This document shows, piece by piece, positions 30,486 to 46,362 of a stretch of DNA of 64,000 nucleotides; position 1 is the stretch's first letter, and the number at the start of each line of letters is the position of its first letter. The notes below the pieces were generated by a model. That model was not told where the DNA came from and ran no database searches. It worked only from the letters and a program-made list of their open reading frames with translations. The stretch comes from an uncultured Bacteroidales bacterium (GTDB taxonomy: Bacteria; Bacteroidota; Bacteroidia; Bacteroidales; UBA3663): NCBI GenBank assembly GCA_905235375.1, contig CAJOLH010000002.1, forward strand, positions 13,416 through 77,415. The letters run 5' to 3'. A program made the translations under genes and the position numbers.

Positions 30486-30528
30486 TTGTGTAGGTTTAAG
30501 AAAGCAAATTTACATATATAATACGCCG

Positions 30529-30536
30529 CAAAGTTA
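30529..30536 (-). promoter_or_regulatory. -7 box TAACTTTG (minus strand) upstream of the GH3 gene
   Basis: The plus strand reads CAAAGTTA at 30529-30536, 44 nt upstream of ATG 30485. Confidence 0.4.
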
Positions 30537-30597
30537 TATAAAAAAGTTCATTCTGCAAAGTATTTCCACCGAAAAAAGCAAATTTGTGAATAAAAAT

Positions 30598-30628
30598 TTT
30601 GTCAAGTCAGATTTAATTAATAATTTTG
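30598..30628 (+). promoter_or_regulatory. Bacteroidota-type promoter (-33 TTTG, -7 TAATTTTG) for the RyR/TIR operon
   Basis: TTTG at 30598-30601, a 19 nt spacer, and TAATTTTG at 30621-30628. It sits 39 nt upstream of ATG 30667. Confidence 0.5.
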
Positions 30629-30666
30629 CACGCTCAAGCAAGGTTTACAACCCCTTTTAGCCCATC

Positions 30667-33393: not shown

Positions 33394-33679
33394 GAAAAAA
33401 TACATTCCGCAACCGATTGACACTACAGGCGTTGAATTGCCTGCTGAACTGTTGGATTTGTCAGAAACCATAGCTCGTAATGTTCATGACATTTGGGCTC
33501 AATCACGCATAAATGAAGGTTGGACCTATGGAGAAAAACGCAATGACGAGAAACGTCAGACACCCTGCCTGGTCGATTATGACGATCTTAGCGAAGAAGA
33601 GAAAGCTTACGATATGAATACATCCCTTGAGTCCTTGCGTCTTATCGTAAAACTGGGCTTCAAAATAACAAAAGATTAA
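33386..33679 (+). CDS. Free-standing RyR-domain protein
   Basis: 97 aa. ARNVHDIWAQSRINEGWTYGEKRNDEKRQTPCLVDYDDLSEEEKAYDMNTSLESLRLIVKLGFKI is a near-textbook bacterial RyR (PF02026-type) pattern. The start overlaps the upstream stop by 8 nt (ATGAATAA). Confidence 0.8.
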   Translation: MNKKKYIPQPIDTTGVELPAELLDLSETIARNVHDIWAQSRINEGWTYGEKRNDEKRQTPCLVDYDDLSEEEKAYDMNTSLESLRLIVKLGFKITKD

Positions 33680-33709
33680 ACGAATCATTAGTCCTTAAAC
33701 CATATATAT

Positions 33710-35092
33710 ATGGGCGAAAAGATTTTTATTAGCTACAAACGAATAGATAAGAAGAAGGTATTGCCTATCGTCGAGGAAATTAGGAAAAAGACGGGGATCA
33801 ACTGCTGGATTGATATGGAAGGTATCGAAAGCGGTGATCAATTCGAACGTATTATCATCCGTGCTATCAAAGGTTGTGATATCCTTGTCTTCATGATGTC
33901 ACGCAACTCGATTGCTCCAATAATCGACACTAAGACAGGTCTTCCAGATTATGACACACAATCGTGGATCGAAAGAGAAGTGAAATTCGCTTTAGACAAG
34001 AAAAAACGTGTCATACCAATTAGCATCGATGGCACAATGGTTTCCGACTGTGATTGGTTGGCATTCAATTGCAACGGAATTGATTGCATAGATTACAGCA
34101 ACCAAGACCAACGTGATAAATTTTTCCGCGATATCACCAGATGGCTGAAGAATACAATCACCGATGTGAAGGAATCAACGGATAAAGGAGCGAAGCCAGA
34201 ACAAAAAATCGAAGTTAGACAGAAACCTAAAGTCGAGGAGAAACAGACTTCACAACAATCTTCACTTCCTACCAAAACCGCAGATTCATCATCTACTCTG
34301 CCGTACTCCTATCTTGCTATAGTCGCTGTGATTGTTGGGCTTGTCATAGCCCTTGCATTTGGACTATGGCCCAAAAACTCAACTGTAGAGCCAACAATTC
34401 CACAAAGTTCGGTCTTCAATGATAGTGCACCCTCTGTAGCTGATTCGCCAGTCTTGAAAGAAAGCGATGTCGTTCCACCCGTTGATAATGAAAAGACAAA
34501 GAGCAATCAGAATAACATTGTGGCTTCAACCCTTCCTGCATCTTCAAAAAATGCAGAACACACGTCTTCTACCAAAACCGTTTCCAACGAAGAAGTTTTA
34601 CCTACTATAAAGGGAGCACCTCACGATCTTGACAGCATTGGCACATGTTATCTGTTTGGCAAGGGTGTGACGAAAAACCAGAAACAGGCTGTCATCTATT
34701 TCCGAAGCGCAGCCCAGCAAGGTTTGGCCAGTGCGCAAACACATCTGGGTAGTTGTTATTATTCGGGCACTGGTGTCAATCAAAACCATCAACAAGCTTT
34801 TGAATGGTTTCTGAAAGCCGCAAAACAAGGAGACCTTACAGCTCAAGATAATTTAGGAAGTTGTTATCTGCTTGGACATGGAACTACTAAAAACCATATT
34901 GCTGCAGTCGAATGGTATAAAAAGGCTGCTGGCAAAGGAAATGCCAGTGCTCAAGCTCATCTCGGTAGCTGTTACCTTTATGGTCAAGGTGTCACCGCAG
35001 ATAAAGATACTGCAATTTATTGGTATGAAAAAGCCGCAGCACAGGGAAACACAACGGCAAAAAAGAATCTTGAGAAGCTATCGACAAACTGA
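33710..35092 (+). CDS. TIR domain - transmembrane helix - Sel1-repeat protein
   Basis: 460 aa. N-terminal TIR_2-type pattern: KIFISYKRIDKK..., CWIDMEGIESGDQFERIIIRAIKGCDILVFMMSRNS, SWIEREV with a candidate catalytic Glu at E90 (nt 33977-33979), and VIPISIDG. It continues through a K/E/Q-rich linker, a TM helix YLAIVAVIVGLVIALAFGLW and an S/P/T-rich linker. It ends in four to five Sel1 repeats (AQTHLGSCYYSGTGVNQNHQQAFEWFLKAAKQG... and others). Confidence 0.8.
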   Translation: MGEKIFISYKRIDKKKVLPIVEEIRKKTGINCWIDMEGIESGDQFERIIIRAIKGCDILVFMMSRNSIAPIIDTKTGLPDYDTQSWIEREVKFALDKKKRVIPISIDGTMVSDCDWLAFNCNGIDCIDYSNQDQRDKFFRDITRWLKNTITDVKESTDKGAKPEQKIEVRQKPKVEEKQTSQQSSLPTKTADSSSTLPYSYLAIVAVIVGLVIALAFGLWPKNSTVEPTIPQSSVFNDSAPSVADSPVLKESDVVPPVDNEKTKSNQNNIVASTLPASSKNAEHTSSTKTVSNEEVLPTIKGAPHDLDSIGTCYLFGKGVTKNQKQAVIYFRSAAQQGLASAQTHLGSCYYSGTGVNQNHQQAFEWFLKAAKQGDLTAQDNLGSCYLLGHGTTKNHIAAVEWYKKAAGKGNASAQAHLGSCYLYGQGVTADKDTAIYWYEKAAAQGNTTAKKNLEKLSTN

Positions 35093-35128
35093 TTAGTCAA
35101 TAACGCGACTTGATATTTGCTAAAAAAT

Positions 35129-35170
35129 AACGAGAGAATCACGATTCGTAAGAATCAAGATTCTCTCGTT
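35129..35170. terminator. Strong hairpin shared by the two convergent operons (likely bidirectional terminator)
   Basis: Perfect 12 bp stem AACGAGAGAATC (35129-35140) / GATTCTCTCGTT (35159-35170), with an A-run upstream and T-containing sequence downstream. It lies between the stops at 35092 (plus strand) and 35203 (minus strand). Confidence 0.6.
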
Positions 35171-35202
35171 CATTATTGATAAAGATGTTCAAGTGGAATC
35201 AT

Positions 35203-36681
35203 TTACCAACAGAAACCTATACCAAACTGGAAATTATTTACGTTATCCTTACAAAAATCTTTGTAATCTCCCGTATATGCCCAGAATGTACGTCGGTAGG
35301 TAAACTTCAAGGCAAATCTAAAATACTTTAGAACAATACCAGCCTCCAAGTCAGCGCCGCCGAAAATATTCTTCTTGGTGTAATCGTCAAGAAATTTATT
35401 ATCAGGAGTAGAATGATAGTCTGAATCGTATTTTTCTTCATCAAAAGAAAGGAAACCTCCATAATGACCGCCAAAACCTGCATGAATATAGATGGGCATC
35501 CAGATATGCCATGTAGGACCAGTGGTAATACAAGCCTCATATTCTAAATTTTCAGGAGATGGAAATTCATCATCGCCTTTCTTTGTCCAACTATTTTCGT
35601 AAATAAATTCCTCATCTTTGTATTCCCCTTGGACATGAGAGGTAAAATGCTCGAAGAAAGATTCATTCGCCATGAGTGTTACATACCAGCCGTTCGTCTT
35701 ATTGTTGTAAAAAGAGCCATAAGTGAATCCAAACATATCATTCTGAGGACTCCATTCAACAATAAATGTACGCGAATGGCTATCCTTGCGAAGACGAGCT
35801 CTACGAACCATTTCCAAACCTTCATTAGCTTGTTTGGTAAACCTGGTACAACCATTATCGATAACCTGATTAAGCATTTGGCTCGCACGGTCGAGATTAC
35901 CTTCGTCCAGTTGTTTCAGTCCCATGTTAATCATAGCTTCACAGTCGCGATCAAAGTTGTGCTGTGCATTATAAAGCGCTTGACGTAATTTGTCATTACC
36001 GTCATAGATAAGGAGTTTGCTATAGGCATTTGCAGATTCATGATATCTAAAGAAATGGTCAGCTTCAACTGCTTGATTATACCAAAGCAGCATTGAGTCG
36101 CACAACTCGATATGATGCAAAATGTTGGCAGTATCATTCAGATATTCGGGGCAGAAGCGGCACAACTCATAGTTATCCTTGGCTTTCTGATACTCGCTAT
36201 TATTGAACGATTCCTGAGCCTTTTCCAGGTAAGTAAAGAATGGACTACGAAGCACAGAATAGGGGTCGCTGACTGTATATTCAAACAACTGTTTGTCCTT
36301 GAGTGGCAATGGCATACGATAGTCCTGGAAACCCGGCACCCTGATTGTCAAACGACGGTTGGAATAGTCTCGACCCGGCTCTTGGGTAATGAACACGATG
36401 CTATAAGTCTTCTTGCCGGCAATCGAATCAACGGTAATGTTCATTTGGTTTTGAGTATCATGCGTAGATTCAAAAGTCAGTCCAAAAGGTTCATGAGTGA
36501 CAAATTGCACCAAAGCTTCATGACGATCGCCACAAGGATAGACACCATAACCAGAAGTCGTTTCCTGTACGTTGAGAAGCTTCAGCTTTTCTTGTCCGAA
36601 CATTGCCATAGTGCTCGTCATCAGCATTGCAATAAGGGCCAATTTATGCTGGGCCGTAAACGAAAATAAAAGTCTTTTCAT
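35203..36681 (-). CDS. Secreted hypothetical protein: N-terminal PEGA-like/TPR-like region plus a C-terminal outer-membrane beta-barrel-like domain (operon gene 5)
   Basis: 492 aa with a signal peptide (...STMAMFGQ). The central helical-repeat region contains NNSEYQKAKDNYELC... and LDEGNLDRASQMLNQVI. The C-terminal third has alternating aromatic/Gly strands and ends ...NNFQFGIGFCW, with the terminal aromatic typical of OM barrels. Confidence 0.65.
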   Translation of the reverse strand: MKRLLFSFTAQHKLALIAMLMTSTMAMFGQEKLKLLNVQETTSGYGVYPCGDRHEALVQFVTHEPFGLTFESTHDTQNQMNITVDSIAGKKTYSIVFITQEPGRDYSNRRLTIRVPGFQDYRMPLPLKDKQLFEYTVSDPYSVLRSPFFTYLEKAQESFNNSEYQKAKDNYELCRFCPEYLNDTANILHHIELCDSMLLWYNQAVEADHFFRYHESANAYSKLLIYDGNDKLRQALYNAQHNFDRDCEAMINMGLKQLDEGNLDRASQMLNQVIDNGCTRFTKQANEGLEMVRRARLRKDSHSRTFIVEWSPQNDMFGFTYGSFYNNKTNGWYVTLMANESFFEHFTSHVQGEYKDEEFIYENSWTKKGDDEFPSPENLEYEACITTGPTWHIWMPIYIHAGFGGHYGGFLSFDEEKYDSDYHSTPDNKFLDDYTKKNIFGGADLEAGIVLKYFRFALKFTYRRTFWAYTGDYKDFCKDNVNNFQFGIGFCW

Positions 36682-36705
36682 AGCTATTGAGTAGTTAATA
36701 TATAT

Positions 36706-37716
36706 TTATTTGATTGTAAAATAATCAAGATTGAATACCTCGTCGCGTTTTATTTCCCTTCCCTCATATTCATTAGGCTGCCACGTGCGAACCTCAATAC
36801 TTGGATTCATGGAATCCTCAAAATTGATCATCAGGAAGAGCCAGCCGACATCCGAATAGGTCGAAGTATTCCAGTATTGCTTAAGGGTTACTCCATAAAT
36901 CTTTTCATGAATGGGATGTTGAATCACCGAAACCTCTTCAAACTTGATGTTGATATAATTGTTCCTGCTGAATATCTTCTGCAACTTGGCGATATATTCC
37001 TTCTTGTTCTGGACCACCAGCTGGTATTGCTGACCGCCTAATCCCTGCAACATTAGATTGGCATCCTTATTACGGTCTTTCTTTCTCAAGATTGTACCCG
37101 TGATGATTAGCGCGTCATCACTATAAACCTGCTTCAGATAACCAAGGTCTTTACGATTGTATGCTGTTCGGAACACCTCAACGAAATCAAGTATCATCTG
37201 TCGACGAACAAGGTCTTCCTCTTTCACGCCATTCACTATGACATTATTATAATTATGCTTTTCAAGCTGCATATTGACCTCGGTAAGATGTCCATTATTG
37301 TCAAACGAGAAAACCATATCCTGAAACAGATTGTCACCTTCGGCACTAAGAACATTCACGGGAATATCACGAAACTGATATCCTCGATTTCCATAAAGGG
37401 TCAAAACATTTCCTTCCACCAGATCTACACTACAGTTGATAGGGCTTTGCTCCCAAAGATCCATGATACTTTTAATCAAAATCTTGTTGTTGGGATCCTT
37501 ATCAGGGAAATGTTCTTTCAACTTATCTTTCAACTTCTTGCCATCTTCCAGTACTGCATCATTGAAAGCTGTGAGCAAACTGGCAGTTTCCTGTTCGATG
37601 TTAGCCTTGGCAGCGGCCGACATCTGACCACTCAAGACCTTTACCTTGACTTGTGCCTGCAAACCCATCACGTAGAAGGGGAGAAGCAACAGAAGGACTG
37701 TTACAATTCTTTTCAT
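36706..37716 (-). CDS. Secreted hypothetical protein, possible NTF2-like C-terminal fold (operon gene 4)
   Basis: 336 aa with a signal peptide (PFYVMGLQA). The segment FVEVFRTAYNRKDLGYLKQVYSDDALIITG resembles the opening helices of NTF2/SnoaL-like folds. The start overlaps the upstream stop by 4 nt. Confidence 0.6.
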   Translation of the reverse strand: MKRIVTVLLLLLPFYVMGLQAQVKVKVLSGQMSAAAKANIEQETASLLTAFNDAVLEDGKKLKDKLKEHFPDKDPNNKILIKSIMDLWEQSPINCSVDLVEGNVLTLYGNRGYQFRDIPVNVLSAEGDNLFQDMVFSFDNNGHLTEVNMQLEKHNYNNVIVNGVKEEDLVRRQMILDFVEVFRTAYNRKDLGYLKQVYSDDALIITGTILRKKDRNKDANLMLQGLGGQQYQLVVQNKKEYIAKLQKIFSRNNYINIKFEEVSVIQHPIHEKIYGVTLKQYWNTSTYSDVGWLFLMINFEDSMNPSIEVRTWQPNEYEGREIKRDEVFNLDYFTIK

Positions 37717-38882
37717 TTTCTTAAATAAGGTATTTCGTTAATAATCTTGTTTCTATTCTTAGAGTTGTCTTTCCCATTAGGGAGATATTCCTCAAAAAGG
37801 GAATAGACATTATGTTGCGGTGTATTGGTGTATAGCAGGGCTGAGAGTGTGGTCGGCTTCTCGGTACCTAATTGGTCGATAGGAATACTCAAGAGCAACA
37901 TGTGGATAAATTCAAACGAGGTATTGCGTAGGATAAGAATACCTGTCAACATTCCTTTCTCAGGCATATATTGGGCTGCTGCAAAATGATCCATCATTCC
38001 TTCATCTTTAAGTCCCGCTAACAAAGTGGGCCAGCTGCAAGTCCACGTTTCATAATGACGGCCATATTGACAATGTGTCACTTCTATAGTCAGCCCCTTG
38101 GGCAGTATATTTCCAAGCAGAAGGTTTTTGACCGATTCCTTCGGATGTTCAGGAGTCCACAAAGCAACTATTGAACTATCTTCCAAAATTTTATAGTAGC
38201 CATCGGCACAAAGTGAATCTATATAGAAGACTTCACCTATCGTATGCCATACATTTTGATTCTGTGTCGCAAACAACTGGTTATAAGAGGGCAATGGATT
38301 CACTGATGCTTTCCCCGTAAAGTTCTGCAGTCTTTTCGATTGCCGCTCATCCTCTTCTTTCTTGTCAGTACCGTAAATCAGTTCCCGATCCTTTGGAATA
38401 TAAAGCAGCAAGGTTGTTTCCGGCTGGCTTCCCGAAATAAAAATCCTGTAGCGATTATTGTCTTCGAAGACTTGAACACCCTTCACATTCTTCAAGATTG
38501 GATATGCCTTTGCAAATGTCTTGAACGGTACTGTGCCGTATGGACATGCCTCTAAGAAGACTCGAACACCATTCTCTTGAATCCATTTGTAGCGTCGTTG
38601 TTCAGACCCATGGAGTACGATTCGCAGCACGATGCGCTCTACGCCACGCCAAAGGTAAGGATTCAAGGCTTGCTGCATCGTGTCGCTGAAGATGGCAACA
38701 CCAATATGACTAAGTTGTCCGTCTGCATCGCGCTCTTCACGAATAGGCAGGTCAGTCTTGAATGTCTGACGCAGTTCCTTTAGTCGCTGTATCTCAAGCG
38801 ACTCTTCGGCGAAAACGTTACCGATAAGTGCTTGTATAGTGACAATCAAAACTGCAAGCAGTCTTCGCATATCAGTATTCAC
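37713..38882 (-). CDS. Secreted hypothetical protein (operon gene 3)
   Basis: 389 aa with a signal peptide (IQALIGNVFA). I recognised no motif. The start overlaps the upstream stop by 4 nt. Confidence 0.6.
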   Translation of the reverse strand: MNTDMRRLLAVLIVTIQALIGNVFAEESLEIQRLKELRQTFKTDLPIREERDADGQLSHIGVAIFSDTMQQALNPYLWRGVERIVLRIVLHGSEQRRYKWIQENGVRVFLEACPYGTVPFKTFAKAYPILKNVKGVQVFEDNNRYRIFISGSQPETTLLLYIPKDRELIYGTDKKEEDERQSKRLQNFTGKASVNPLPSYNQLFATQNQNVWHTIGEVFYIDSLCADGYYKILEDSSIVALWTPEHPKESVKNLLLGNILPKGLTIEVTHCQYGRHYETWTCSWPTLLAGLKDEGMMDHFAAAQYMPEKGMLTGILILRNTSFEFIHMLLLSIPIDQLGTEKPTTLSALLYTNTPQHNVYSLFEEYLPNGKDNSKNRNKIINEIPYLRK

Positions 38883-40966
38883 TTTTCGTTAATTTTATAA
38901 CCATAGGAAAGAAGAACTGGTATCCAGGCATCATACTCTGCTTGAACGGCAAGATTCTTGCATTCGATTGACTTTTCAAAATTGTAGTCTAAACCATGGT
39001 GTTTGCCATTTGCGCAACAATAAGCTCTTGACAATTCTTCAAAAGCTCTTGGGCAACCCATCTCTGCCGCGCGTGTAGTGTGCTCGATATATGAACGATA
39101 ATCGTTCTTCAGCCAATAATAATGACCAAGATCCAACTCAGCATAGGAATTTCCCGCATCAGCTGCCTGATTAAGCCACATCGTTGCTTCGTCCAAATTC
39201 CTCTTGTCGGGCTGACACCATAATAATAGATGTCCTAACTGTTGGATGCTATGCAAGTCGCCCCTGATTGCTCCCTGCCGATAATAATGGGCAGCACTAT
39301 CTACCATCATCGGAGTGAGACTACTACTTAAGTCGCCATCCTCATCCCATCCCATCGAATTAGTTCTCACATACATATCGCCCTTGAGACCGTACCATCG
39401 TGCATCATTCTGGTCTTTTAGGCTTTGCATCCAATATTCCGACGATTTGAGATATTTCCTGCGCGTTGCTGTGCTATGTTCCCCATACTCGTATGCTTCG
39501 TAGAAATAATAACTTGCCAACCAAGCCTTTGCATTTGGGTCGGAAACAACAGTCGCCAGATGTGTCATCGTCTGAATGGCCTTGTTTTCATTTCGCTTCA
39601 CTCCAATACCAAATTGATAAAGGATGGCGAGAGGATAACTTCTGCCTATATACCTTTGCGCATCTTCATTAACCCTCATAAAAATATTCTGCGCCTCATA
39701 GTCATTTCGATAATCGACCTGCTCGGGCATTTCATATTTTGCATAAGTGTCAGGTGCACGATATAGATAAATCTTCTGATTCTGGCCTCTGCGCGTACGC
39801 ATATAACCATTGGAATTGATATTGTTTCTGACATTGCCGAGATTACACTCCAAGACATTCGGACTTACGAGTTTGCAATCAAACGTATATTCCACAGTGG
39901 TGGTAATGCTTTTCCCTGAGCTTAACAGATTAGATGCCTGATCGTTGTCTTGATCCGGATCTGAAGGTGAATCGTTGAACGGAAGTAGATGAGCTATGTT
40001 CGAAACAAGATTGCGTGTCCATTTCAAAAGATTTTTGCTCTGGTCATATTCTTCATCAATGGAAAAAACAAAACTAATCAAATTGCCATTTGTCTTACCC
40101 TCAGCTTCTTCGTTGACAATCACAAAACGCATATCATTTAACAGACGTACACGTTTCATGTAGTTCATCTTCTGGGTCTGTATCGCTTGAATGTAACGCG
40201 ACTCACAGACGATTCCCGATTGATCGGAAATCGAAATGAGATACGTTCCATTGTCGGTTCGCTTGAAACGGAAGATCCACATCTCGCGACCATCTTCAAT
40301 ACAGTTATCACTCACCCAACGTCCCGTGAGGTCAGAATTGGCCGAAGCGGGAATCGTCGTATTCATGTTGAGTTTTGGCAATTCCAGCCCGTAATGTCTA
40401 AGGAAACTGAAACCTTGATAAGGTTTTAATGGGGTTTCTTCAATATTTTTTTGCAGAGGAAATGTGTTGGCAGCAGCTCTTGCTTCCTCATCAGTTGTTA
40501 TCACAGGCACAGCATCCTGAATGGCAAGTTCCCTCTGGCTATCCTGTTCCTCCAAGTCATCAAAATGGTTGATTTTCAGCAAATCCTCAAGTTCTCTTAA
40601 TCTATTTCGTGGTTCAACAATTTTCTCCGAGTCATATTCCAAGGTGAGATATTTTCGATAGAAATAGATTGCACTGGCAAGAGCTTCTGGATTATGTAAG
40701 CGATCATACATGTCTTCATAAATATGTGCCTTCCGAAGATAAGGTGCCGGGTATCCGGGCGATAACTCAATAACGACATCAATAGCCGCCAACGCATCGT
40801 CAAAATTATTTTTGCGCATGAACATTTCTGCCCTCATGAACTGAAGATTCACTTGTGAACGTGTCACTTGTCCATAAGCAATATCTTCCGTCAATTGGGA
40901 TAGGAACGATAGCAATATCATTCCCTGTATCAATAGAAAACGTCTTATGCAACTATCTATTTTCAT
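38879..40966 (-). CDS. Secreted TPR / Sel1-repeat protein (operon gene 2)
   Basis: 695 aa with an N-terminal hydrophobic signal. A TPR-like segment (FMRAEMFMRKNNFDDALAAIDVVIELSPGYPAPYLRKAHIY) is followed by an unknown middle domain. The C-terminus has Sel1-like repeats (AAHYYRQGAIRGDLHSIQQLGHLLLW; ATMWLNQAADAGNSYAELDLGHYYW; TTRAAEMGCPRAFEELSRAY). Confidence 0.7.
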   Translation of the reverse strand: MKIDSCIRRFLLIQGMILLSFLSQLTEDIAYGQVTRSQVNLQFMRAEMFMRKNNFDDALAAIDVVIELSPGYPAPYLRKAHIYEDMYDRLHNPEALASAIYFYRKYLTLEYDSEKIVEPRNRLRELEDLLKINHFDDLEEQDSQRELAIQDAVPVITTDEEARAAANTFPLQKNIEETPLKPYQGFSFLRHYGLELPKLNMNTTIPASANSDLTGRWVSDNCIEDGREMWIFRFKRTDNGTYLISISDQSGIVCESRYIQAIQTQKMNYMKRVRLLNDMRFVIVNEEAEGKTNGNLISFVFSIDEEYDQSKNLLKWTRNLVSNIAHLLPFNDSPSDPDQDNDQASNLLSSGKSITTTVEYTFDCKLVSPNVLECNLGNVRNNINSNGYMRTRRGQNQKIYLYRAPDTYAKYEMPEQVDYRNDYEAQNIFMRVNEDAQRYIGRSYPLAILYQFGIGVKRNENKAIQTMTHLATVVSDPNAKAWLASYYFYEAYEYGEHSTATRRKYLKSSEYWMQSLKDQNDARWYGLKGDMYVRTNSMGWDEDGDLSSSLTPMMVDSAAHYYRQGAIRGDLHSIQQLGHLLLWCQPDKRNLDEATMWLNQAADAGNSYAELDLGHYYWLKNDYRSYIEHTTRAAEMGCPRAFEELSRAYCCANGKHHGLDYNFEKSIECKNLAVQAEYDAWIPVLLSYGYKINEK

Positions 40967-40978
40967 CCAATTAAGAAA

Positions 40979-42337
40979 CTATAGACTGTAAATTACCTTG
41001 CGCTTGTCATAGTTCATTTTACTGACCTTGTTATTCAATCCTGTCTTCATTCGACGAAGGTTCAACAACATTGCATTCTTACGCAATAGTGCAGAATCAA
41101 CATTGTCAGGAACAAACAATCTCATGTCTTTCTTTTCATCTTTCTCAAGCAAAGCAAGCGAACGATGGTCTTTAACGGTTACAACCATGCTGCTCGAATA
41201 ATATTGCATTGGGTATTTCCCTTGTGTGGGAGTGCCATCAGCCAGAATATCGCAACTAACGTCAATCTCAATGTCGGAATTCTTTTTGTCCGTCACCCTT
41301 TTGTATCCATTAGCGTCCATGATGCTTGATAATGTGTCACCAATGAACTTAAAGTCGTCATCCGACAGGTTAAGATAATAGAATGGGGTAGGATCGAACG
41401 AAAATAGTGACATCTGTGCAGTATGTAATTGTTCCATCAGGCGCAGAGGCAGTTCTCCCGAAAAAATATGCTTCGGAAGGTCGAGGAGCGATTGCTTGTT
41501 CAAGCTAACCGTAACAATAGCCTTGTCCGTTTTAGGTGCTTCTGTGACATGAAGCTTGGCAATGCCCTCAGCGTTCGTCATTTTCACATGATTCACCTTT
41601 CCTCCATCACTGACAGTGAATGAGACAGGCAATCCCTGAACGGGTTGTCCGTTATAGGTGGCTTTTGCAAAGATTTCGACAGGAACATCCTCGCCTGGTA
41701 CCATCGGGCACGACTTCTTTTCAAACGTCCAATAGATACTATCCATGCTATGCAGATAGCCTTGATGCAAGACTTCTACCAAGTCGAAATCGTGATAAAC
41801 TATCTGTTTATGCAAAATGGGCACCAGATTCTGGAGAGCATGACAATACACTTCTGCAGCGTTGAACAACTCACCTGTCCGTTTTAACTCTTCAGCTCGT
41901 GTAGCCATCGAATCCACGAGAACTACTATAGCGGAATAGACCGAATCGCAGAATAAGCGATAATCATGTTCTGAAATTTCACAATAAATGTAGCTCTGAT
42001 CATCTGTCACATGCGTCTTGACCGATTTGAAGAATGCGCTGTTTTCGGCGATCTTTACTAACGAAGAATGTTGCTCCACTGGCGCTTGGCCTTTCTCAAT
42101 CAATGAATACTGGTAGGAACCTTCTTCCGAACGTCCGGAGGTCTTTTGACTAACTAAAATGTTTACTGCATTATGACGAGCTTCTTCAAGCGTACTGCCC
42201 GAGGCAACAGCTCTCGTAATCGTGGCAGTGGAAATTGGATTGGTAGTAGCCCATTTAGGTAGCGGTTTGTACTGACAAACAGCTATCACAGGCATCATAC
42301 TGAATAGAAAAAATGAAAATAATAATTTATTTATCAT
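40979..42337 (-). CDS. Lipoprotein with an LPP20-like N-terminal region and a central Ig-like (Big_1-like) domain (operon gene 1)
   Basis: 452 aa from ATG 42337 (MINKLLFSFFLFSMMPVIAVCQ, a lipobox-like Cys). The track's TTG start at 42364 falls inside the predicted -7 box. The central VPGEDVPVEIFAKATYNGQPVQGLPVSFTVSDGGKVNHVKMTNAEGIAKLHV resembles an invasin/Big_1 domain. Confidence 0.65.
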   Translation of the reverse strand: MINKLLFSFFLFSMMPVIAVCQYKPLPKWATTNPISTATITRAVASGSTLEEARHNAVNILVSQKTSGRSEEGSYQYSLIEKGQAPVEQHSSLVKIAENSAFFKSVKTHVTDDQSYIYCEISEHDYRLFCDSVYSAIVVLVDSMATRAEELKRTGELFNAAEVYCHALQNLVPILHKQIVYHDFDLVEVLHQGYLHSMDSIYWTFEKKSCPMVPGEDVPVEIFAKATYNGQPVQGLPVSFTVSDGGKVNHVKMTNAEGIAKLHVTEAPKTDKAIVTVSLNKQSLLDLPKHIFSGELPLRLMEQLHTAQMSLFSFDPTPFYYLNLSDDDFKFIGDTLSSIMDANGYKRVTDKKNSDIEIDVSCDILADGTPTQGKYPMQYYSSSMVVTVKDHRSLALLEKDEKKDMRLFVPDNVDSALLRKNAMLLNLRRMKTGLNNKVSKMNYDKRKVIYSL

Positions 42338-42361
42338 CTTGAATATATATTTAAAGCGGCA

Positions 42362-42369
42362 CAAAGATA
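42362..42369 (-). promoter_or_regulatory. -7 box TATCTTTG (minus strand) for the five-gene operon
   Basis: The plus strand reads CAAAGATA at 42362-42369, 25 nt upstream of ATG 42337. Confidence 0.45.
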
Positions 42370-42630
42370 CTGCTTTTTTTAAAATAAAACTAATTAAAAG
42401 TGAAAAATATGAAAAATTATTGTTTTTTTACTATTCAACTTGCAAAAAATAGTTGTTTTATAACGATATTTTCTTAATAGTTCAAAGTATTTCTTATTGA
42501 AATATTTCCACTAATAACATATTTAATTCATGAATCCACATAGCTCTATATAGACATAGAAAGATTTTCTCATTAATTCTTACGCTAATCATTATTGACC
42601 GTTTATTAACCCTTACAAATTCAATTTTTA

Positions 42631-42640
42631 CCCCCCCCCC
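42631..42640. repeat. Homopolymeric C10 tract in an AT-rich divergent intergenic region
   Basis: TTTTTA-CCCCCCCCCC-ATTTG, read directly from the sequence. Confidence 0.95.
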
Positions 42641-42794
42641 ATTTGTTAAAAATGTTTAAATAATTTTAGATTTTGCTGTTTGAGATTGCTAAATAAATAA
42701 AATAGGCATACTTTTGCGACAAATTAAAACAAAATATACAGATTTGATTAAGAATTGTAACTTGCAAACACCTTTTTAATAACTTTCTTCTAAT

Positions 42795-43130
42795 ATGGAT
42801 GATCTCATACTACGCATCGAAACTATCATGAATGAAGAGTTGTTGTTTAGGAACCCGGAACTCACCATCCGTGATGTTGCGAGAGAACTTGCCACCAATC
42901 GCTTCTACATTTCGAGGGCTATCAACACGCATTTTGGCTATTCTTTTACCGTTTACATCAATCGAAAGCGCATTGAGTATTCCATTACGTTAATGTCTGA
43001 ATTTCCCATGAAGACAATGGATAGCATAGCTACCGAGTCGGGTTTTCTCTCTGAAAAAGCATTCTTCCAAAAGTTCCGGCAAGTCATGAACGATTCGCCC
43101 CGATCATATATGAAGAAACTAAAGCCTTGA
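42795..43130 (+). CDS. AraC/XylS-type helix-turn-helix protein, DNA-binding domain only
   Basis: 111 aa. LTIRDVARELATNRFYISRAINTHFGYSFTVYINRKRIEY...MDSIATESGFLSEKAFFQKFRQVMNDSPRSY is a dual-HTH AraC C-terminal domain with no sensor domain. TACTTTTG at 42709-42716 is a candidate -7 box. Confidence 0.7.
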   Translation: MDDLILRIETIMNEELLFRNPELTIRDVARELATNRFYISRAINTHFGYSFTVYINRKRIEYSITLMSEFPMKTMDSIATESGFLSEKAFFQKFRQVMNDSPRSYMKKLKP

Positions 43131-43152
43131 CCGATTTGGCCAAGGCTTTTTT
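43122..43152. terminator. Rho-independent terminator overlapping the AraC-like stop codon
   Basis: Stem AAGCCTTG / CAAGGCTT (about 43123-43148), followed by TTTTTT (43147-43152). Confidence 0.6.
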
Positions 43153-43168
43153 ATTCAGTATAATTAAA

Positions 43169-43330
43169 TTAATCTTCATCATCCCAGATGCCATTGCGGC
43201 GCTTGCCCCATTGCTGACCTTCATCTGCAGATTTATCACTTACACTTAGCGTAGGACCTGAAGTAGCAATGATCTCAACAGACCCTAAACGGATGAACTG
43301 TAAAGCTGGGGTAATATATATCTTTTTCAT
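43169..43330 (-). CDS. Small ORF (53 aa) immediately downstream of the C10 protease gene
   Basis: Not in the ORF track because it is under 60 aa; I translated it by hand: MKKIYITPALQFIRLGSVEIIATSGPTLSVSDKSADEGQQWGKRRNGIWDDED. It is on the same strand as the C10 gene, 26 nt after its stop. I recognised no motif. Confidence 0.35.
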   Translation of the reverse strand: MKKIYITPALQFIRLGSVEIIATSGPTLSVSDKSADEGQQWGKRRNGIWDDED

Positions 43331-43356
43331 AATGTAATACTTATCATTGTGTTAGA

Positions 43357-45945
43357 TTATTTGACAAAAACTTTACGGACTGAACCATCATCGAGAACAA
43401 TCACATTCAACCCCTTCCGCAAGTCGATAAGACGGTTGCCGTCGATGGAGTAGATCCCAGCGGGAACAGATTCAGTCTTAACCAGATCAATACCCTCCTC
43501 ATCGTTGATAACAGGCAGAGCATAGCTGATGACATTTGAATCTTCATCATCATCTTCATCAAGACGGAGGAAAGCACGGTACTGGGCAGCTTTTCGGTTG
43601 GCAGGAGTGCCATTGTAGCGATAGAATGCTGCCTCATCATTCTGAACTTGCAGAATATAGTCGAATCTTGAATCAAGCGACACATCATTGGTCAATGCCC
43701 CAACCAGCAAACCATCTTGAAATGAAACTTCAGTTCCATCAATGGCATCCGGTCCGGTGAAGGAGTAGTCCTGATTGTAATTGGCAGTCACCACGTATGG
43801 CTTATTACGCGAAATGCTTGATTCTTCTTGCAGTGTCAATACTCCGTTGGAAGTTACTTCCGAACAGCTATAGACCTTCATGCCGTCGGGTAAAGTAGCA
43901 TTGAACGGCAGAATCAGTGTGCCATAGCCTGCGGGACTCACGCCGTAATCAACAGTCAATTTGTCTCGATAGATGAAGGAGATAGACGGGTAGTTGTATG
44001 GCACTGAAAATTTATTATCTGAATAAAAATTAATAGTATATGATTTATTTTTCTCGAGTTCTTCCTTAAATTCGGATAAATCCAAATATCCCTCAAGTTC
44101 ATAGAAAGATGGAACATTATTATAAGAAATACCACGACCACGTATATTATCACCTATTGTTATTATATATAACACATACACAGTTGTCGTACTGCTGGTA
44201 TTATTCTTCACCTTAAAATGCAATTTCAAGTCATCCTCGTAGGGATTGTTGCCATTGTTGAAATATGGCTCTTCCATAAGGTAAACCGACTCGGTTGGTA
44301 GTTCGCCTGAAATGGTTATAGTGGGGTAGTTTTCTTCGAGCAACTTATCCACCTCTACCCAATCCTCGTCGGTTTGTCCTGCCAGGCGGCATACTGGCCT
44401 CAATTGATAAGTTCCCTCATCCCAATTGGAAGGATAGAATTGCAAATCTATAGCAATAGGATTCCTATCTGTTACATTGTCGATATAATTATTATTTCGT
44501 TGAAGGCTCACATTAGTTCGGCTCACCGAATAATATATTTTACTCTCATTAGCAATGTTTACTGCCTTTACACCGTAGTCGAAGACTGATGAAATACAAC
44601 TGAGGTTTTTAAGTGAAGAGAAAAGATGTCCATTCAGATAACCTGTTGAGCGGTTATAATCGTAATTATCTTCATAGATAGTATCTCCAATTTTCAAATA
44701 CATTGCACCACCAGTAGCAGGACATTCAATTTGTCCAAGGTGCGCATAAGCTGAACCTCCAGCATCGGGCATTACGCACAGCACAATCATCTGCCCCTCG
44801 GTATATGCCGAACCTGAACCTGCACCGCCAATACCACTGCCTAAGGGCTGCAATGCTCCGGTGCCTGTCAGGGGGAAACTGCCGTCGCAGTAGCCTCCCC
44901 AACCCCAGTTGAAGGTGAATAATGAGTTTTCCGCATCGTAGCCATCGCAAATAAACTGGTGGCCGCTGCCACTTGATGCCTGACCGCTATAGAGCACTGG
45001 GCGTCCCGCTTGAAGTTCTTTATACACAAGGTTTTCCCAATCATCATCAGTGTAATAAGTGCGGAATTCATTGCGCACCGATTTGTCATATCTGAAATAA
45101 GTGGCAAGTGCATAACCGATATTTTCGGAGAAAGCTCCCGAGCCACTGGTTGCCGAAGTGTTATAGTCCATATCGACCGACACACCCGCATGGTACATCA
45201 GCGTGGCTACGGCATCGGCTGCATCTCCTGTATCAGTTGAATTATAGTTATCGGTCATTGCATTCCATCCGTAGGACGTTTCTCCAAAGTTCGCCGAGAA
45301 TGTGAGGAAACTGTAGGTCTTAGGACTATAGGAGTAACTGCTGGTTCCTGTAGCTGGAAACTTGTATTTATACATTACCTGCGCCATGGCCGTGGCAACA
45401 CAACCTGTCACGAAATCGAAATTATAATCCGTAACTTGACTGTTGGCCACCTGATTGACCATGTTGTTAAAAGGTTCTCCCTGATTCCACTTCGATGGTA
45501 TCAATGAGGAAATACCAGCGCGACTGGTGGTTGCCTTAGACCTTCGGCCTCTCGTCGCATCAGCCTTCTCTGCCCGAGCAATCTGCTCTGTGTATTGGCT
45601 CAGCCACCACTTGAAGTTGTCGGGAGCCTTGTCAAAATCAAATGTGCCGTGGTCACAATAGCCCAGGATCTCGCGGGCAGCCTCGTCACCACCGATGATG
45701 ACAAAGCCCTCGTCCTCTCCTGCATTGAAGACGTAGAAACACGTCTTGCCCTCGCTGCGGGAAGTATAGGCCAACGAAACTTGTGGGGCAACGTCTGCCC
45801 CCTTGGCACGCTTGGTGCCATCGGTCTGATTCGACAGGAATTCGAGAGCGCGCCCTTGTGCCTCTTCGATGCTCACTTCCTGCGCCATAATGGCATTGAC
45901 ATTCATAGCCAAAAGCAATGCCAAGAAATTTGAAAAATACTTCAT
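43357..45945 (-). CDS. Peptidase C10 (streptopain/interpain-like cysteine protease) with a T9SS C-terminal sorting domain
   Basis: 862 aa. Signal peptide and a pro-region (SIEEAQGRALEFL). Catalytic Cys context WNQGEPFNNM...TGCVATAMAQVMYKYKFP, His context GSGHQFICDGYD, then FNWGWGG. A long beta-rich C-terminal extension ends ...PAGIYSIDGNRLIDLRKGLNVIVLDDGSVRKVFVK (T9SS CTD pattern). Confidence 0.85.
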   Translation of the reverse strand: MKYFSNFLALLLAMNVNAIMAQEVSIEEAQGRALEFLSNQTDGTKRAKGADVAPQVSLAYTSRSEGKTCFYVFNAGEDEGFVIIGGDEAAREILGYCDHGTFDFDKAPDNFKWWLSQYTEQIARAEKADATRGRRSKATTSRAGISSLIPSKWNQGEPFNNMVNQVANSQVTDYNFDFVTGCVATAMAQVMYKYKFPATGTSSYSYSPKTYSFLTFSANFGETSYGWNAMTDNYNSTDTGDAADAVATLMYHAGVSVDMDYNTSATSGSGAFSENIGYALATYFRYDKSVRNEFRTYYTDDDWENLVYKELQAGRPVLYSGQASSGSGHQFICDGYDAENSLFTFNWGWGGYCDGSFPLTGTGALQPLGSGIGGAGSGSAYTEGQMIVLCVMPDAGGSAYAHLGQIECPATGGAMYLKIGDTIYEDNYDYNRSTGYLNGHLFSSLKNLSCISSVFDYGVKAVNIANESKIYYSVSRTNVSLQRNNNYIDNVTDRNPIAIDLQFYPSNWDEGTYQLRPVCRLAGQTDEDWVEVDKLLEENYPTITISGELPTESVYLMEEPYFNNGNNPYEDDLKLHFKVKNNTSSTTTVYVLYIITIGDNIRGRGISYNNVPSFYELEGYLDLSEFKEELEKNKSYTINFYSDNKFSVPYNYPSISFIYRDKLTVDYGVSPAGYGTLILPFNATLPDGMKVYSCSEVTSNGVLTLQEESSISRNKPYVVTANYNQDYSFTGPDAIDGTEVSFQDGLLVGALTNDVSLDSRFDYILQVQNDEAAFYRYNGTPANRKAAQYRAFLRLDEDDDEDSNVISYALPVINDEEGIDLVKTESVPAGIYSIDGNRLIDLRKGLNVIVLDDGSVRKVFVK

Positions 45946-46362
45946 AAATTAATAATAAATATTGTTAGGTTTTCATATTGCAGCGCACCAGAATAGCTTT
46001 ATTTTTAAGTATCAAATATAATGATATTTCCCGAAATTCCTTTTATGATTGTATCGGAAAAAACAAAATTCCTTAATTGTATTTCTTTTATTTTTATAAT
46101 TGCAATCTTGACAGTGCATTTTTTACCAATGAATAATGCTTTGACCGAATTGACCAAGGCTTTCTAATTCCATAGATTATTCGTCTTCTTTCAAAGTCAA
46201 TTAGTAATTATCCTAGTCGGATGTTCCCTCTCGGCGATTTATAAGCTACTGGCCATCGTCCGAAGGATCAGTCATAATTGCCATCATCACTGCGCAATAA
46301 TTTAGTTTTCAATAATTATCATTATCGAATTTTGTCAAACATCGACAAACTTGAAAAAAAAG

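Follow-up and report, generated by a model that had tools for sequence, protein, structure and literature searches.

Five adjacent genes for exported proteins in Bacteroidales may encode an outer-membrane-anchored periplasmic complex with a three-gene core

Five closely spaced genes that encode only exported proteins, found in a 64,000-nucleotide stretch of DNA from an uncultured Bacteroidales bacterium (the window), raise the question of whether their products act together in the cell envelope and, if so, as what kind of assembly. The initial annotation had proposed an assembly reaching from periplasm to outer membrane that it could not match to the Bat, Tol-Pal, curli, type V pilus and T9SS systems. 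No paper on the cassette was found in the literature. Searches against Pfam, NCBIfam, PADLOC and the PDB gave no match that would place it in a characterised pathway, none being assigned in any profile library, and no enzymatic domain was recognisable in the five proteins of the window.

The five minus-strand open reading frames span 35203-42337 and were found where the initial annotation had placed them (Table 1), with gaps of 12 nt between genes 1 and 2 and 24 nt between genes 4 and 5, as it had also reported. Of two claimed 4-nt overlaps that of genes 3 and 4 (ATGA, 37713-37716) is the one certain overlap of the operon. The other, between genes 2 and 3, would need a GTG start at 38882, whereas the ATG at 38870 sits 8 nt past the gene 2 stop codon and gives a protein of 385 amino acids, the length seen in homologues and obtained with other gene callers. 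Genes 2 and 3 are tightly coupled whichever start applies. The proposed -7 box is present upstream of gene 1, and in 21 of 24 distinct related loci a TAnnTTTG box precedes the gene 1 start, mostly by 28-49 nt; the motif is not enriched across the window as a whole (44 found vs 34.8 expected). Gene 1 most likely starts at ATG 42337, and the alternative TTG at 42364 falls within the promoter box. The terminator postulated behind gene 5 proved to be a strong hairpin (-24.8 kcal/mol, z = -5.9, no fold as good in 200 shuffles) followed by a U-run on the minus strand, and terminator-like sites within the operon were not in excess over shuffled sequence. A short AraC-type HTH gene (110-116 aa) divergent from gene 1 is conserved in the window's clade; in a second clade a 297-aa AraC-family gene lies upstream of gene 1.

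Table 1. Features of the five-gene cassette and its borders (positions in the window)
Feature	Position	Strand	Description or basis
Hairpin terminator, common to the cassette and the convergent TIR-Sel1 gene	35129..35170		folding
Gene 5, 492 aa	35203..36681	-	signal peptide, beta-sandwich, TPR-like helical domain, barrel
Gene 4, 336 aa	36706..37716	-	signal peptide, N-terminal domain of unassigned type, predicted C-terminal NTF2-like domain
Gene 3, 385 aa	37713..38870	-	signal peptide, two alpha+beta domains; alternative GTG start 38882
Gene 2, 695 aa	38879..40966	-	signal peptide, TPR, middle domain without match, Sel1 repeats
Gene 1, 452 aa	40979..42337	-	signal peptide, weakly LPP20-like N-terminal region, helical region, Ig-like domain, C-terminal domain without assignment
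Promoter box TATCTTTG, Bacteroidota-type -7	42362..42369	-	sequence read; positional conservation
AraC-type HTH protein, 111 aa, possible local regulator (tentative)	42795..43130	+	Pfam HTH_18 1e-13

Signal peptides had been claimed for every product, and they were present in all five and also in the orthologues; in most signal peptides of the five families the predicted cleavage site is followed by Gln. We rejected the reading of gene 1 as a lipoprotein, to which a lipobox-like Cys had pointed. This residue is unique to the window and is replaced in orthologues by G or A before the conserved Gln, so that cleavage by signal peptidase I is more likely than lipidation. Of the domains assigned to gene 1, the Ig-like one (Big_1/MG4-type, about aa 228-281) was borne out by matches to Big_1 (1e-6, under the Pfam cut-off) and intimin (2e-5). 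The LPP20-like N-terminus fared less well, with E = 0.19 for gene 1 itself and E <= 0.5 in 3 of 18 orthologues (best 0.0015), all under the cut-off.

In gene 2 an N-terminal TPR region (about aa 33-97) and C-terminal Sel1 repeats (about aa 440-690) flank a middle domain (about aa 200-430) without match, as first described. The protein matched a solved Sel1-repeat protein at E = 1.7e-71, and its Sel1 region also matched AlgK, the partner of AlgE. MotX was among the matches of gene-2-type proteins (72.9 bits vs a family cut-off of 330). The Vibrio flagellar T-ring proteins MotX (Sel1) and MotY (OmpA-like) likewise pair a periplasmic Sel1 protein with an outer-membrane or peptidoglycan-associated partner, but no flagellar genes accompany the cassette and the likeness is limited to generic Sel1 repeats. 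Gene 3 had no sequence match in Pfam, NCBIfam or the PDB. Its AlphaFold2 model (pLDDT 80) gave weak, non-significant NTF2-like matches in the fold search. A near-invariant charged segment, PKxRELIxGTDKKEED, joins its two domains, and short variants of the protein retain the C-terminal part only.

Gene 4 is by far the most conserved subunit: 69 positions are conserved at >=90% (80 distinct sequences), whereas gene 3 has 8 such positions and gene 5 has 27, and the strongly conserved residues are largely polar or charged. The family comprises 911 close matches and 1,532 representative clusters at 50% identity. The only profile that recognises it is the Pfam Cds6_C NTF2-like model (PF24125), which matched 28 of 29 family members, all under the cut-off (best E-value 7.6e-6), over about 60 residues. 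A profile search of the PDB gave no sequence match and did not retrieve 4XZZ. From these sub-threshold matches the C-terminus (about aa 165-320) is predicted to be NTF2-like, in keeping with the fold suspected at the outset.

Gene 5 of the window had no sequence-family match. Its AlphaFold2 model (pLDDT 88) comprises the beta-sandwich (aa 35-138), the TPR-like domain (aa 140-301) and a barrel of 8 long strands (aa 304-491) with short turns at the chain-end side and long loops opposite. TPR proteins were matched in a PDB profile search, and cysteines of the soluble part are conserved. The best structural matches of the barrel in Foldseek were OmpX, the OprF N-terminal barrel, Ail and OmpA (E = 1.6e-5 to 9e-5, probability 1.00), and the C-terminus, FGIGFCW, has the alternating aromatic pattern and ends, as they do, on an aromatic residue. 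Gene 5 thus models confidently as an outer-membrane barrel bearing periplasmic TPR and beta-sandwich domains, and the barrel first suspected from its C-terminus is modelled as 8-stranded and OmpX/OmpA-like. It differs from OmpA in that its soluble domains are N-terminal, with no C-terminal OmpA_C domain for peptidoglycan binding. As in BcsC, PgaA and PelB, a single chain carries a periplasmic TPR region followed by an outer-membrane barrel at its C-terminus, and BcsC was among the weaker fold matches. Those exopolysaccharide exporters, however, form pores of 16-18 strands, and no context of the cassette contained synthase, glycosyltransferase or c-di-GMP genes, whether within it or nearby.

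Comparison of loci separated an almost invariant part of the cassette from a variable one. The five genes keep their order in diverged loci (L001-L012), the flanks of which differ; the conserved unit, however, is genes 3-4-5 rather than all five. In a locus sample biased to the window's relatives, and with our own rather crude gene calling and BLAST clustering, gene 4 was adjoined by gene 3 in 63 of 64 and by gene 5 in 55 of 56 distinct loci with room for a neighbour. The trio stays intact in many Bacteroidales of gut and rumen, and gene order persists where protein identity drops to 22-40%. Of the 29 loci that extended at least 6 kb to each side, 15 yielded a gene 1. Genes 1 and 2 are one among several interchangeable accessory sets: the trio occurs with both, with gene 2 alone, or with three other genes tightly packed against it, which encode a CHASE2 membrane protein (1e-16), a Sel1 and Peptidase_C14 protein with signal peptide (2e-20) and an exported protein without assignment. 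The Sel1 modules of gene 2 and of this caspase protein match each other (hhalign probability 99.2), and the likeness is confined to that module. Since the gene calling and clustering were crude, some accessory genes scored as absent may be over-diverged; in Paludibacter sp. 221, for example, gene 3 is preceded by a gene for a 690-aa TPR protein that is possibly a diverged accessory gene. Fusions were also found. In one protein (P0210) gene 4 is fused to CarboxypepD_reg and OMP_b-brl_2, a beta-sandwich and a barrel, and in five further proteins to another exported domain, which is also encoded on its own between genes 3 and 4.

On balance, and with slightly better than even confidence, we take the five genes to be an operon for an outer-membrane-anchored periplasmic complex with the trio as its core. 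The claim is a general one and extends to no specific biochemical function. It retains the proposal of a periplasm-to-outer-membrane assembly outside the known systems, in that all products are exported, gene 5 has a predicted barrel and no pathway profile applies; the tight gene spacing would suit a stoichiometric assembly. Gene 5 would be the anchor, its barrel in the outer membrane and its beta-sandwich and TPR domains hanging into the periplasm, with genes 3 and 4 as the remaining core subunits. Gene 4, whose NTF2-like domain is extremely conserved, would most likely be the centre of ligand binding or catalysis. Gene 2 may serve as a repeat scaffold whose Sel1 module docks the accessory set to the core, with the Ig-like gene 1 as its lineage-specific partner.

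In the first alternative the cassette would be a hub that tethers or remodels peptidoglycan, with gene 5 as an anchor in the manner of OmpA or Pal and the NTF2-like proteins binding or modifying peptidoglycan or a different envelope glycan. Csd6 (HP0518; spelt 'Cds6' in Pfam and in part of the literature), an L,D-carboxypeptidase of Helicobacter pylori, acts on peptidoglycan, and because of this substrate it works outside the cytoplasm. Its C-terminal NTF2-like domain supplies the one profile that gene 4 matches, the predicted location is likewise extracytoplasmic, the many conserved polar residues would fit a binding pocket and the barrel of gene 5 is OmpA-like. That match is short and sub-threshold, however, and 4XZZ was not retrieved by the PDB profile search. 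Gene 4 also lacks the L,D-transpeptidase-like catalytic domain of Csd6 and has another N-terminal domain and another genomic context, and OmpA_C, LysM, SPOR, YkuD and other peptidoglycan-binding or -processing domains were not found in any of the five proteins. We consider this reading unlikely.

A somewhat smaller chance attaches to there being no complex, only co-transcribed exported proteins that act independently, their synteny reflecting co-regulation. The differing accessory genes among lineages would agree with this, but the adjacency of the trio survives at 25-40% protein identity, starts and stops overlap, gene 4 is found fused to a barrel and to other exported modules, and TPR and Sel1 repeats typically make protein-protein contacts.

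Less probable again is a shuttle for lipids or other hydrophobic ligands, with NTF2-like carriers (genes 3 and 4) docking to gene 5 at the outer membrane as MlaC does to MlaA. In its favour are the NTF2-like domain of gene 4, and perhaps of gene 3, beside an outer-membrane anchor; MlaC itself is a distant relative of the NTF2-like folds, many of which enclose a hydrophobic pocket. Against this, gene 4 conserves mainly polar or charged residues, no MlaC, MCE, ABC-transporter or LolA/LptA-type match was obtained for the proteins or among conserved neighbours, and the alternative caspase and CHASE2 partners are unsuited to transport.

The initial annotation had also entertained a functional link with the neighbouring TIR/RyR operon, and the cassette could accordingly be imagined as the envelope arm of a defence island, sensing phage or envelope damage and signalling to that operon. 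The cassette converges on the TIR-Sel1 gene with a common terminator, both lie within one low-GC block, the TIR protein carries a transmembrane segment followed by Sel1 repeats as found in cassette accessory proteins, and the partners of the trio in other lineages include a caspase, a kind of protease frequent in conflict systems. Yet only five near relatives (L005, L006, L021, L022 and L024; gene 4 85-91% identical) share with the window the adjacency of operon and cassette, and the operon is absent from every other context seen, including at least seven other downstream contexts. Sel1 repeats are moreover generic, PADLOC gave no matches for the five proteins, and no gene 4 homologues were found on phages or plasmids. 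The link is not supported, and we hold the defence reading to be distinctly improbable, slightly more so than the shuttle. An intimin/invasin-type adhesin, with the gene 5 barrel exporting or displaying the Ig-like domain of gene 1, is hardly credible: the intimin-type (Big_1) domain and the barrel do share an operon, but inverse autotransporters join a 12-stranded barrel and its passenger in one polypeptide, whereas here the barrel has 8 strands and belongs to a separate protein, and many loci with the trio lack gene 1.

For the anchored periplasmic complex that we favour, the alternative accessory set resembles the Sel1-containing and CHASE2-linked metacaspases and orthocaspases of bacteria. 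Prokaryotic metacaspases have Sel1 as one of their most frequent partner domains, and descriptions exist of a caspase-CHASE2 fusion and, in Bacteroidetes, of multi-metacaspase operons (PMC3501461). That survey describes no association of caspases with an NTF2-like, TPR-barrel trio (PMC3501461), and the cassette of the window itself contains neither caspase nor CHASE2. In other Bacteroidales the core has three other partners, namely a CHASE2 protein of the inner membrane, the Sel1-caspase, which is exported, and one more exported protein. Because it pairs with different accessory sets, the core resembles a general platform that serves variable effectors or sensors in the periplasm.

The cassette was read from the window sequence as five consecutive minus-strand open reading frames, just as the initial annotation had described them, and its features are collected in the table below together with those of the surrounding region. 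The junctions are tight. Between gene 1 and gene 2 the sequence reads TAG, 12 nt, ATG, and between gene 4 and gene 5 it reads TAA, 24 nt, ATG. Two 4-nt start/stop overlaps had been proposed in addition. The one between gene 3 and gene 4 (ATGA at 37713-37716) is present, while that between gene 2 and gene 3 is ambiguous: a GTG at 38882 would create a GTGA overlap, and an ATG at 38870, located 8 nt beyond the gene 2 stop, yields 385 aa, the length assigned by other gene callers and shared by the homologues. For gene 1, the longest open reading frame begins with a TTG at 42364, which falls within the proposed promoter box, and the ATG at 42337 is therefore the likely start. All five products were said to be exported, and a basic n-region, a hydrophobic core and a cleavage site with small residues were indeed recognized in each of them and in their orthologues, the residue after the predicted cleavage site usually being Gln.

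Features of the cassette, of its surroundings and of the gene 5 product
Feature	Position	Strand	Description
Convergent TIR/RyR operon	30667-35092	+	three proteins: 908-aa, RyR, TIR-Sel1
Terminator	35129-35170		hairpin common to both operons
Gene 5	35203-36681	-	
Gene 4	36706-37716	-	
Gene 3	37713-38870	-	
Gene 2	38879-40966	-	
Gene 1	40979-42337	-	
Box upstream of gene 1	42362-42369		candidate promoter element
Poly-G tract	42631-42640	-	run of 10 G
AraC-family gene	42795-43130	+	111 aa
C10 peptidase gene	43357-45945	-	862-aa protein, Spi-inhibitor prodomain and Peptidase_C10 (streptopain-like), then ~500 residues of unassigned type
CotH kinase-family gene	46445-48259	+	
Gene 5 beta-sandwich	residues 35-138		AlphaFold2 model
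Gene 5 all-helical TPR-like domain	residues 140-301		AlphaFold2 model; profile matches TPR proteins in PDB
Gene 5 barrel	residues 304-491		AlphaFold2 model; 8 long strands, high pLDDT

The box upstream of gene 1 reads TATCTTTG. Window-wide, the motif TAnnTTTG is not enriched (44 found versus 34.8 +/- 5.7 expected). Of 24 related loci that are distinct, however, 21 have a TAnnTTTG box ahead of the gene 1 start, mostly at a distance of 28-49 nt and including some loci with a gene 1 protein that is only ~22-25% identical, and this positional recurrence supports a real promoter. At the other end of the operon, the proposed hairpin terminator is borne out by a folding energy of -24.8 kcal/mol (z = -5.9, with none of 200 shuffled sequences folding as well) and by the U-run that follows it. 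Terminator-like sites inside the operon do not exceed the frequency seen after shuffling of the sequence.

Some further observations were made upstream of gene 1. The poly-G tract lies in the 458 nt that separate gene 1 from the AraC-type gene. It has counterparts of nine G in the related locus L006 and of eight in L009, L021 and L022, is missing from L005 and L024, and lies at a varying distance from gene 1. The tract could permit phase variation by slipped-strand mispairing, or it could be a homopolymer whose length is sensitive to assembly. The AraC-family protein is essentially an HTH_18 DNA-binding domain without a sensor domain; since it is kept at 110-116 aa across the window's clade, it does not resemble a recent truncation. 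In a second clade, a full-length 297-aa AraC gene lies upstream of gene 1. Loci L029, L031-L034, L038, L039 and L053, which represent one lineage, encode an exported protein of 293 aa ~50 nt ahead of gene 1 (e.g. L032:4015-4896). It has no Pfam match and ends in ...GISTSF, and a small barrel of the outer membrane is a possible reading. Most members of this lineage still have a TAnnTTTG box 37 nt upstream of gene 1, so that the 293-aa gene may be a separate transcription unit; no such box was found in L032.

Homologues were collected by word-indexed searches, which returned 911 proteins for gene 4 as well as 44 for gene 5 and 20 for gene 3, the latter two sets stemming exclusively from Bacteroidales assemblies. 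A genome scan with the gene 3 alignment yielded 11 loci only, as its patterns under-sample the family. Named carriers include Barnesiella viscericola DSM 18177, Phocaeicola fibrisolvens, Bacteroides sp. An269 and Paludibacter sp. 221, joined by many rumen MAGs, and the homologues are annotated at source as 'hypothetical', 'nuclear transport factor 2 family' or 'tetratricopeptide repeat protein'. Gene order was then compared in 100 fetched loci plus the window after open reading frame calling and BLAST clustering; calling and single-linkage clustering are crude and the sampled loci are those most similar to the window. In this sample, gene 3 adjoins gene 4 in 63 of 64 distinct loci with sufficient room and gene 5 adjoins in 55 of 56. 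The complete five-gene order is found again in at least five flanking contexts that are unrelated to each other. One odd order was noted by the same crude calling in L085 (gene 3, gene 5, gene 5, gene 4, gene 5), where the three gene-5-like reading frames around gene 4 could reflect an expansion of paralogues or else an artefact of calling or assembly.

The genes beside this trio vary. In the 29 loci for which 6 kb or more was available on either side, genes 1 and 2 are both present in 15, and three have gene 2 only. Six others possess a set composed of a CHASE2 protein, an exported Sel1-Peptidase_C14 protein and an exported unassigned protein, packed as tightly as the genes in the window, one has the caspase-Sel1 gene only, and the accessory set is of another or unrecognised type in four. 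The caspase His and Cys catalytic motifs, AGHG and DACYS, are retained, as judged by eye from one printed sequence. When gene 2 and the caspase protein were aligned by profile-profile comparison, they proved to have the Sel1 module alone in common (probability 99.2). The same method revealed no relationship between gene 3 and gene 4, between gene 1 and the other exported domains, between gene 2 and gene 5, or between gene 5 and a neighbouring putative barrel protein. In five proteins, gene 4 is joined to a further exported domain; elsewhere this domain has a gene of its own, located between genes 3 and 4. In the homologue P0210, gene 4 is fused to a CarboxypepD_reg-like sandwich and an OMP_b-brl_2 barrel, the only such barrel to match that family (1.3e-14). 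In some loci a 261-aa exported protein is encoded between genes 3 and 4; an impression that it is LPP20-like was supported neither by Pfam nor by hhalign.

Gene 4 is by far the most conserved subunit, with 69 positions at least 90% conserved among 80 distinct sequences, many of them polar, as compared with 8 positions in gene 3 and 27 in gene 5. Conserved residues of gene 4 include Y186, N187, D190, Y241, H267, K279, Q280, W282, Y287, D289 and R310-Q313. A profile search of 1.84 billion representatives gave 1,532 clusters for its family, 900 of them at E <= 1e-30, and tblastn against plasmids and phages found no relatives. The gene 4 sequence matches the NTF2-like Pfam family PF24125 Cds6_C with E = 1.8e-4 and 22.2 bits, which is below the cut-off of 27. 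Of 29 family members, 28 are recognized by Cds6_C at E <= 0.01 and four by SnoaL_3, and a PDB profile search with gene 4 found no match. The name 'Cds6' refers in Pfam to Csd6/HP0518 of Helicobacter pylori (PDB 4XZZ), which acts on peptidoglycan as an L,D-carboxypeptidase. The label 'Cif family virulence factor', attached by one source to the gene 4 homologue of Barnesiella viscericola (P0383, WP_025278992.1), looks unsupported, as this protein has no match in NCBIfam release 20.

Gene 5 had been proposed to form an outer-membrane barrel on account of its C-terminus, and structure prediction agrees with this. The AlphaFold2 model, built from an alignment of 39 homologues, has a pLDDT of 88, and its best Foldseek matches are OmpX, the N-terminal barrel of OprF, Ail and OmpA (E = 1.6e-5 to 9e-5, probability 1.00). 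In the model the strand connections are short on the side of the two chain ends and long on the opposite side. The C-terminal sequence ...FQFGIGFCW has the terminal aromatic and the alternating hydrophobic residues of a beta-signal, and G487, G489, F490 and W492 show little or no variation among the 39 homologues. In even-stranded barrels of standard topology the N-terminal domains are periplasmic, and the sandwich and the helical domain of gene 5 would thus be located in the periplasm. No match to OMP_b-brl, OmpA_membrane or similar families was obtained in Pfam and NCBIfam, and the PDB profile search returned TPR matches only.

For gene 3, no sequence match was found in Pfam, NCBIfam or the PDB profile search. 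Its model (pLDDT 80) contains two alpha+beta domains and gave no significant Foldseek match in the PDB, the best NTF2-like fold having E = 0.053. A charged segment, PKxRELIxGTDKKEED, is nearly invariant, and certain variants retain the C-terminal half alone. The architecture first described for gene 2 stands, with TPR at the N-terminus, a middle domain of unassigned type and Sel1 repeats at the C-terminus. The Sel1 match is strong: at profile positions ~440-690, the profile of the family aligns with solved proteins of this repeat class at E = 1.7e-71, the Pfam Sel1 match of the single sequence being below cut-off. An Ig-like domain in gene 1 is likewise corroborated, by Big_1/MG4 matches below the Pfam cut-off and by intimin at 2.4e-5, and PDB profile searches with gene 1 and gene 2 gave Ig and Sel1/TPR matches only. 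Two other suggestions concern the N-terminus of gene 1. The lipobox-like Cys is seen only in the window, with G or A in its place in the listed orthologues, and since it is not conserved we reject the reading of gene 1 as a lipoprotein. The LPP20-like N-terminus is a weak signal (E = 0.18-0.19, below the 25.9-bit cut-off); 3 of 18 orthologues match LPP20 at E <= 0.5 (best 0.0015), all of them below 25.9 bits, and no solved LPP20-family protein was among the PDB profile matches.

We also compared the cassette with known systems. Pfam and NCBIfam scans of the five proteins at E <= 1 yielded generic or sub-threshold TPR, Sel1, Ig and NTF2 matches only and no match to families of T9SS, Tol-Pal, Bat, curli, type V pilus or Mla, in agreement with the earlier failure to place the genes in the first five of these. 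Exopolysaccharide exporters (BcsC/PgaA/PelB) possess a pore barrel of 16-18 strands, whereas gene 5 has 8 strands in ~190 residues and matches BcsC weakly (TM 0.16, Foldseek). Furthermore, exporter operons encode a polysaccharide synthase or glycosyltransferase, which is present neither in the window operon nor as a conserved neighbour in related loci. With OmpA/OmpX-like barrels gene 5 shares the strand number and the beta-signal, without a match to a curated sequence family. PADLOC found nothing among the five window proteins; in a locus with the alternative set it gave one clear match, to a generic caspase model, and a marginal one for the gene 5 protein (E = 0.0065). Literature searches found no paper on the cassette, and a survey of prokaryotic caspase homologues provides general context only (PMC3501461). 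The cassette is assembled from familiar folds and lacks the defining features of every system tested. We rate it as not assignable to a known kind of system, with the word 'system' denoting something known here from genomic evidence alone.

A sensor working with the convergent TIR/RyR operon, as the initial annotation had thought conceivable, is the rival explanation that we reject, because adjacency of that operon to the cassette is limited to the window and to five of its near relatives (L005, L006, L021, L022 and L024, gene 4 85-91% identical), and every other context in the sample lacks it. Of the proteins of this operon, the 908-aa one is a multi-pass membrane protein without Pfam match, the RyR-domain protein has 97 aa (1.7e-33), and the TIR_2 protein shows four Sel1 repeats, weak ThsB-like PADLOC matches and, judged by eye, a transmembrane segment between its TIR and Sel1 parts. 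The TIR/RyR operon, the cassette, the AraC-type gene and the C10 peptidase gene lie in a block at ~30000-46000 with a GC content of 0.39-0.45 versus 0.45-0.59 in most of the surroundings. Gene order of this block is retained in relatives such as L006 and L022, and the 64-kb window contains no tRNA genes.

Export signals, folds, conserved synteny, modularity and gene fusions were observed, and the reading that they support best is a modular complex of the periplasm in which gene 5 would be the outer-membrane anchor, genes 3 and 4 fixed partners, gene 4 the functional centre and the Sel1-bearing proteins adaptors for lineage-specific modules. Physical contacts, the roles of the subunits and any biochemical activity are inferred. 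No inner-membrane subunit or recognisable enzyme was seen in the window's version, so this system appears to span periplasm and outer membrane only. Rival explanations are that the proteins form a peptidoglycan-linked hub or a lipid shuttle, that the genes are merely co-regulated, or that the cassette encodes an adhesin. A bolder version of the modular complex, which we put forward as a rather long shot, is that the trio constitutes a previously unrecognised, widespread envelope machine of the Bacteroidales, with the outer-membrane-tethered NTF2-fold gene 4 as a new periplasmic enzyme or ligand sensor and with swappable Sel1-docked modules that lead to different outputs, e.g. a periplasmic caspase-like protease and an inner-membrane CHASE2 partner. 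If this were true, the caspase/CHASE2 output would be a trans-envelope signalling or proteolysis pathway of an undescribed kind.

Bacteroidales dominate gut and rumen communities, yet inference from Proteobacteria supplies much of what is understood of their envelope. The cassette lacks a functional annotation; its core family comprises ~1,500 clusters at 50% identity, and carriers are found in the cultured genera Barnesiella, Phocaeicola, Bacteroides and Paludibacter. Experimental handles are offered by the modular design, with a fixed trio and partners swapped via the Sel1 module, by the extreme conservation of gene 4 and by the pairing of an exported caspase and a CHASE2 protein with the trio in sister lineages. 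Should the trio serve as a platform on which sensing or proteolysis takes place in the periplasm, it would represent a new type of envelope system and provide a first cellular context for exported bacterial caspase homologues; as a plain structural tether, it would be a lineage-specific envelope component still worth annotating.
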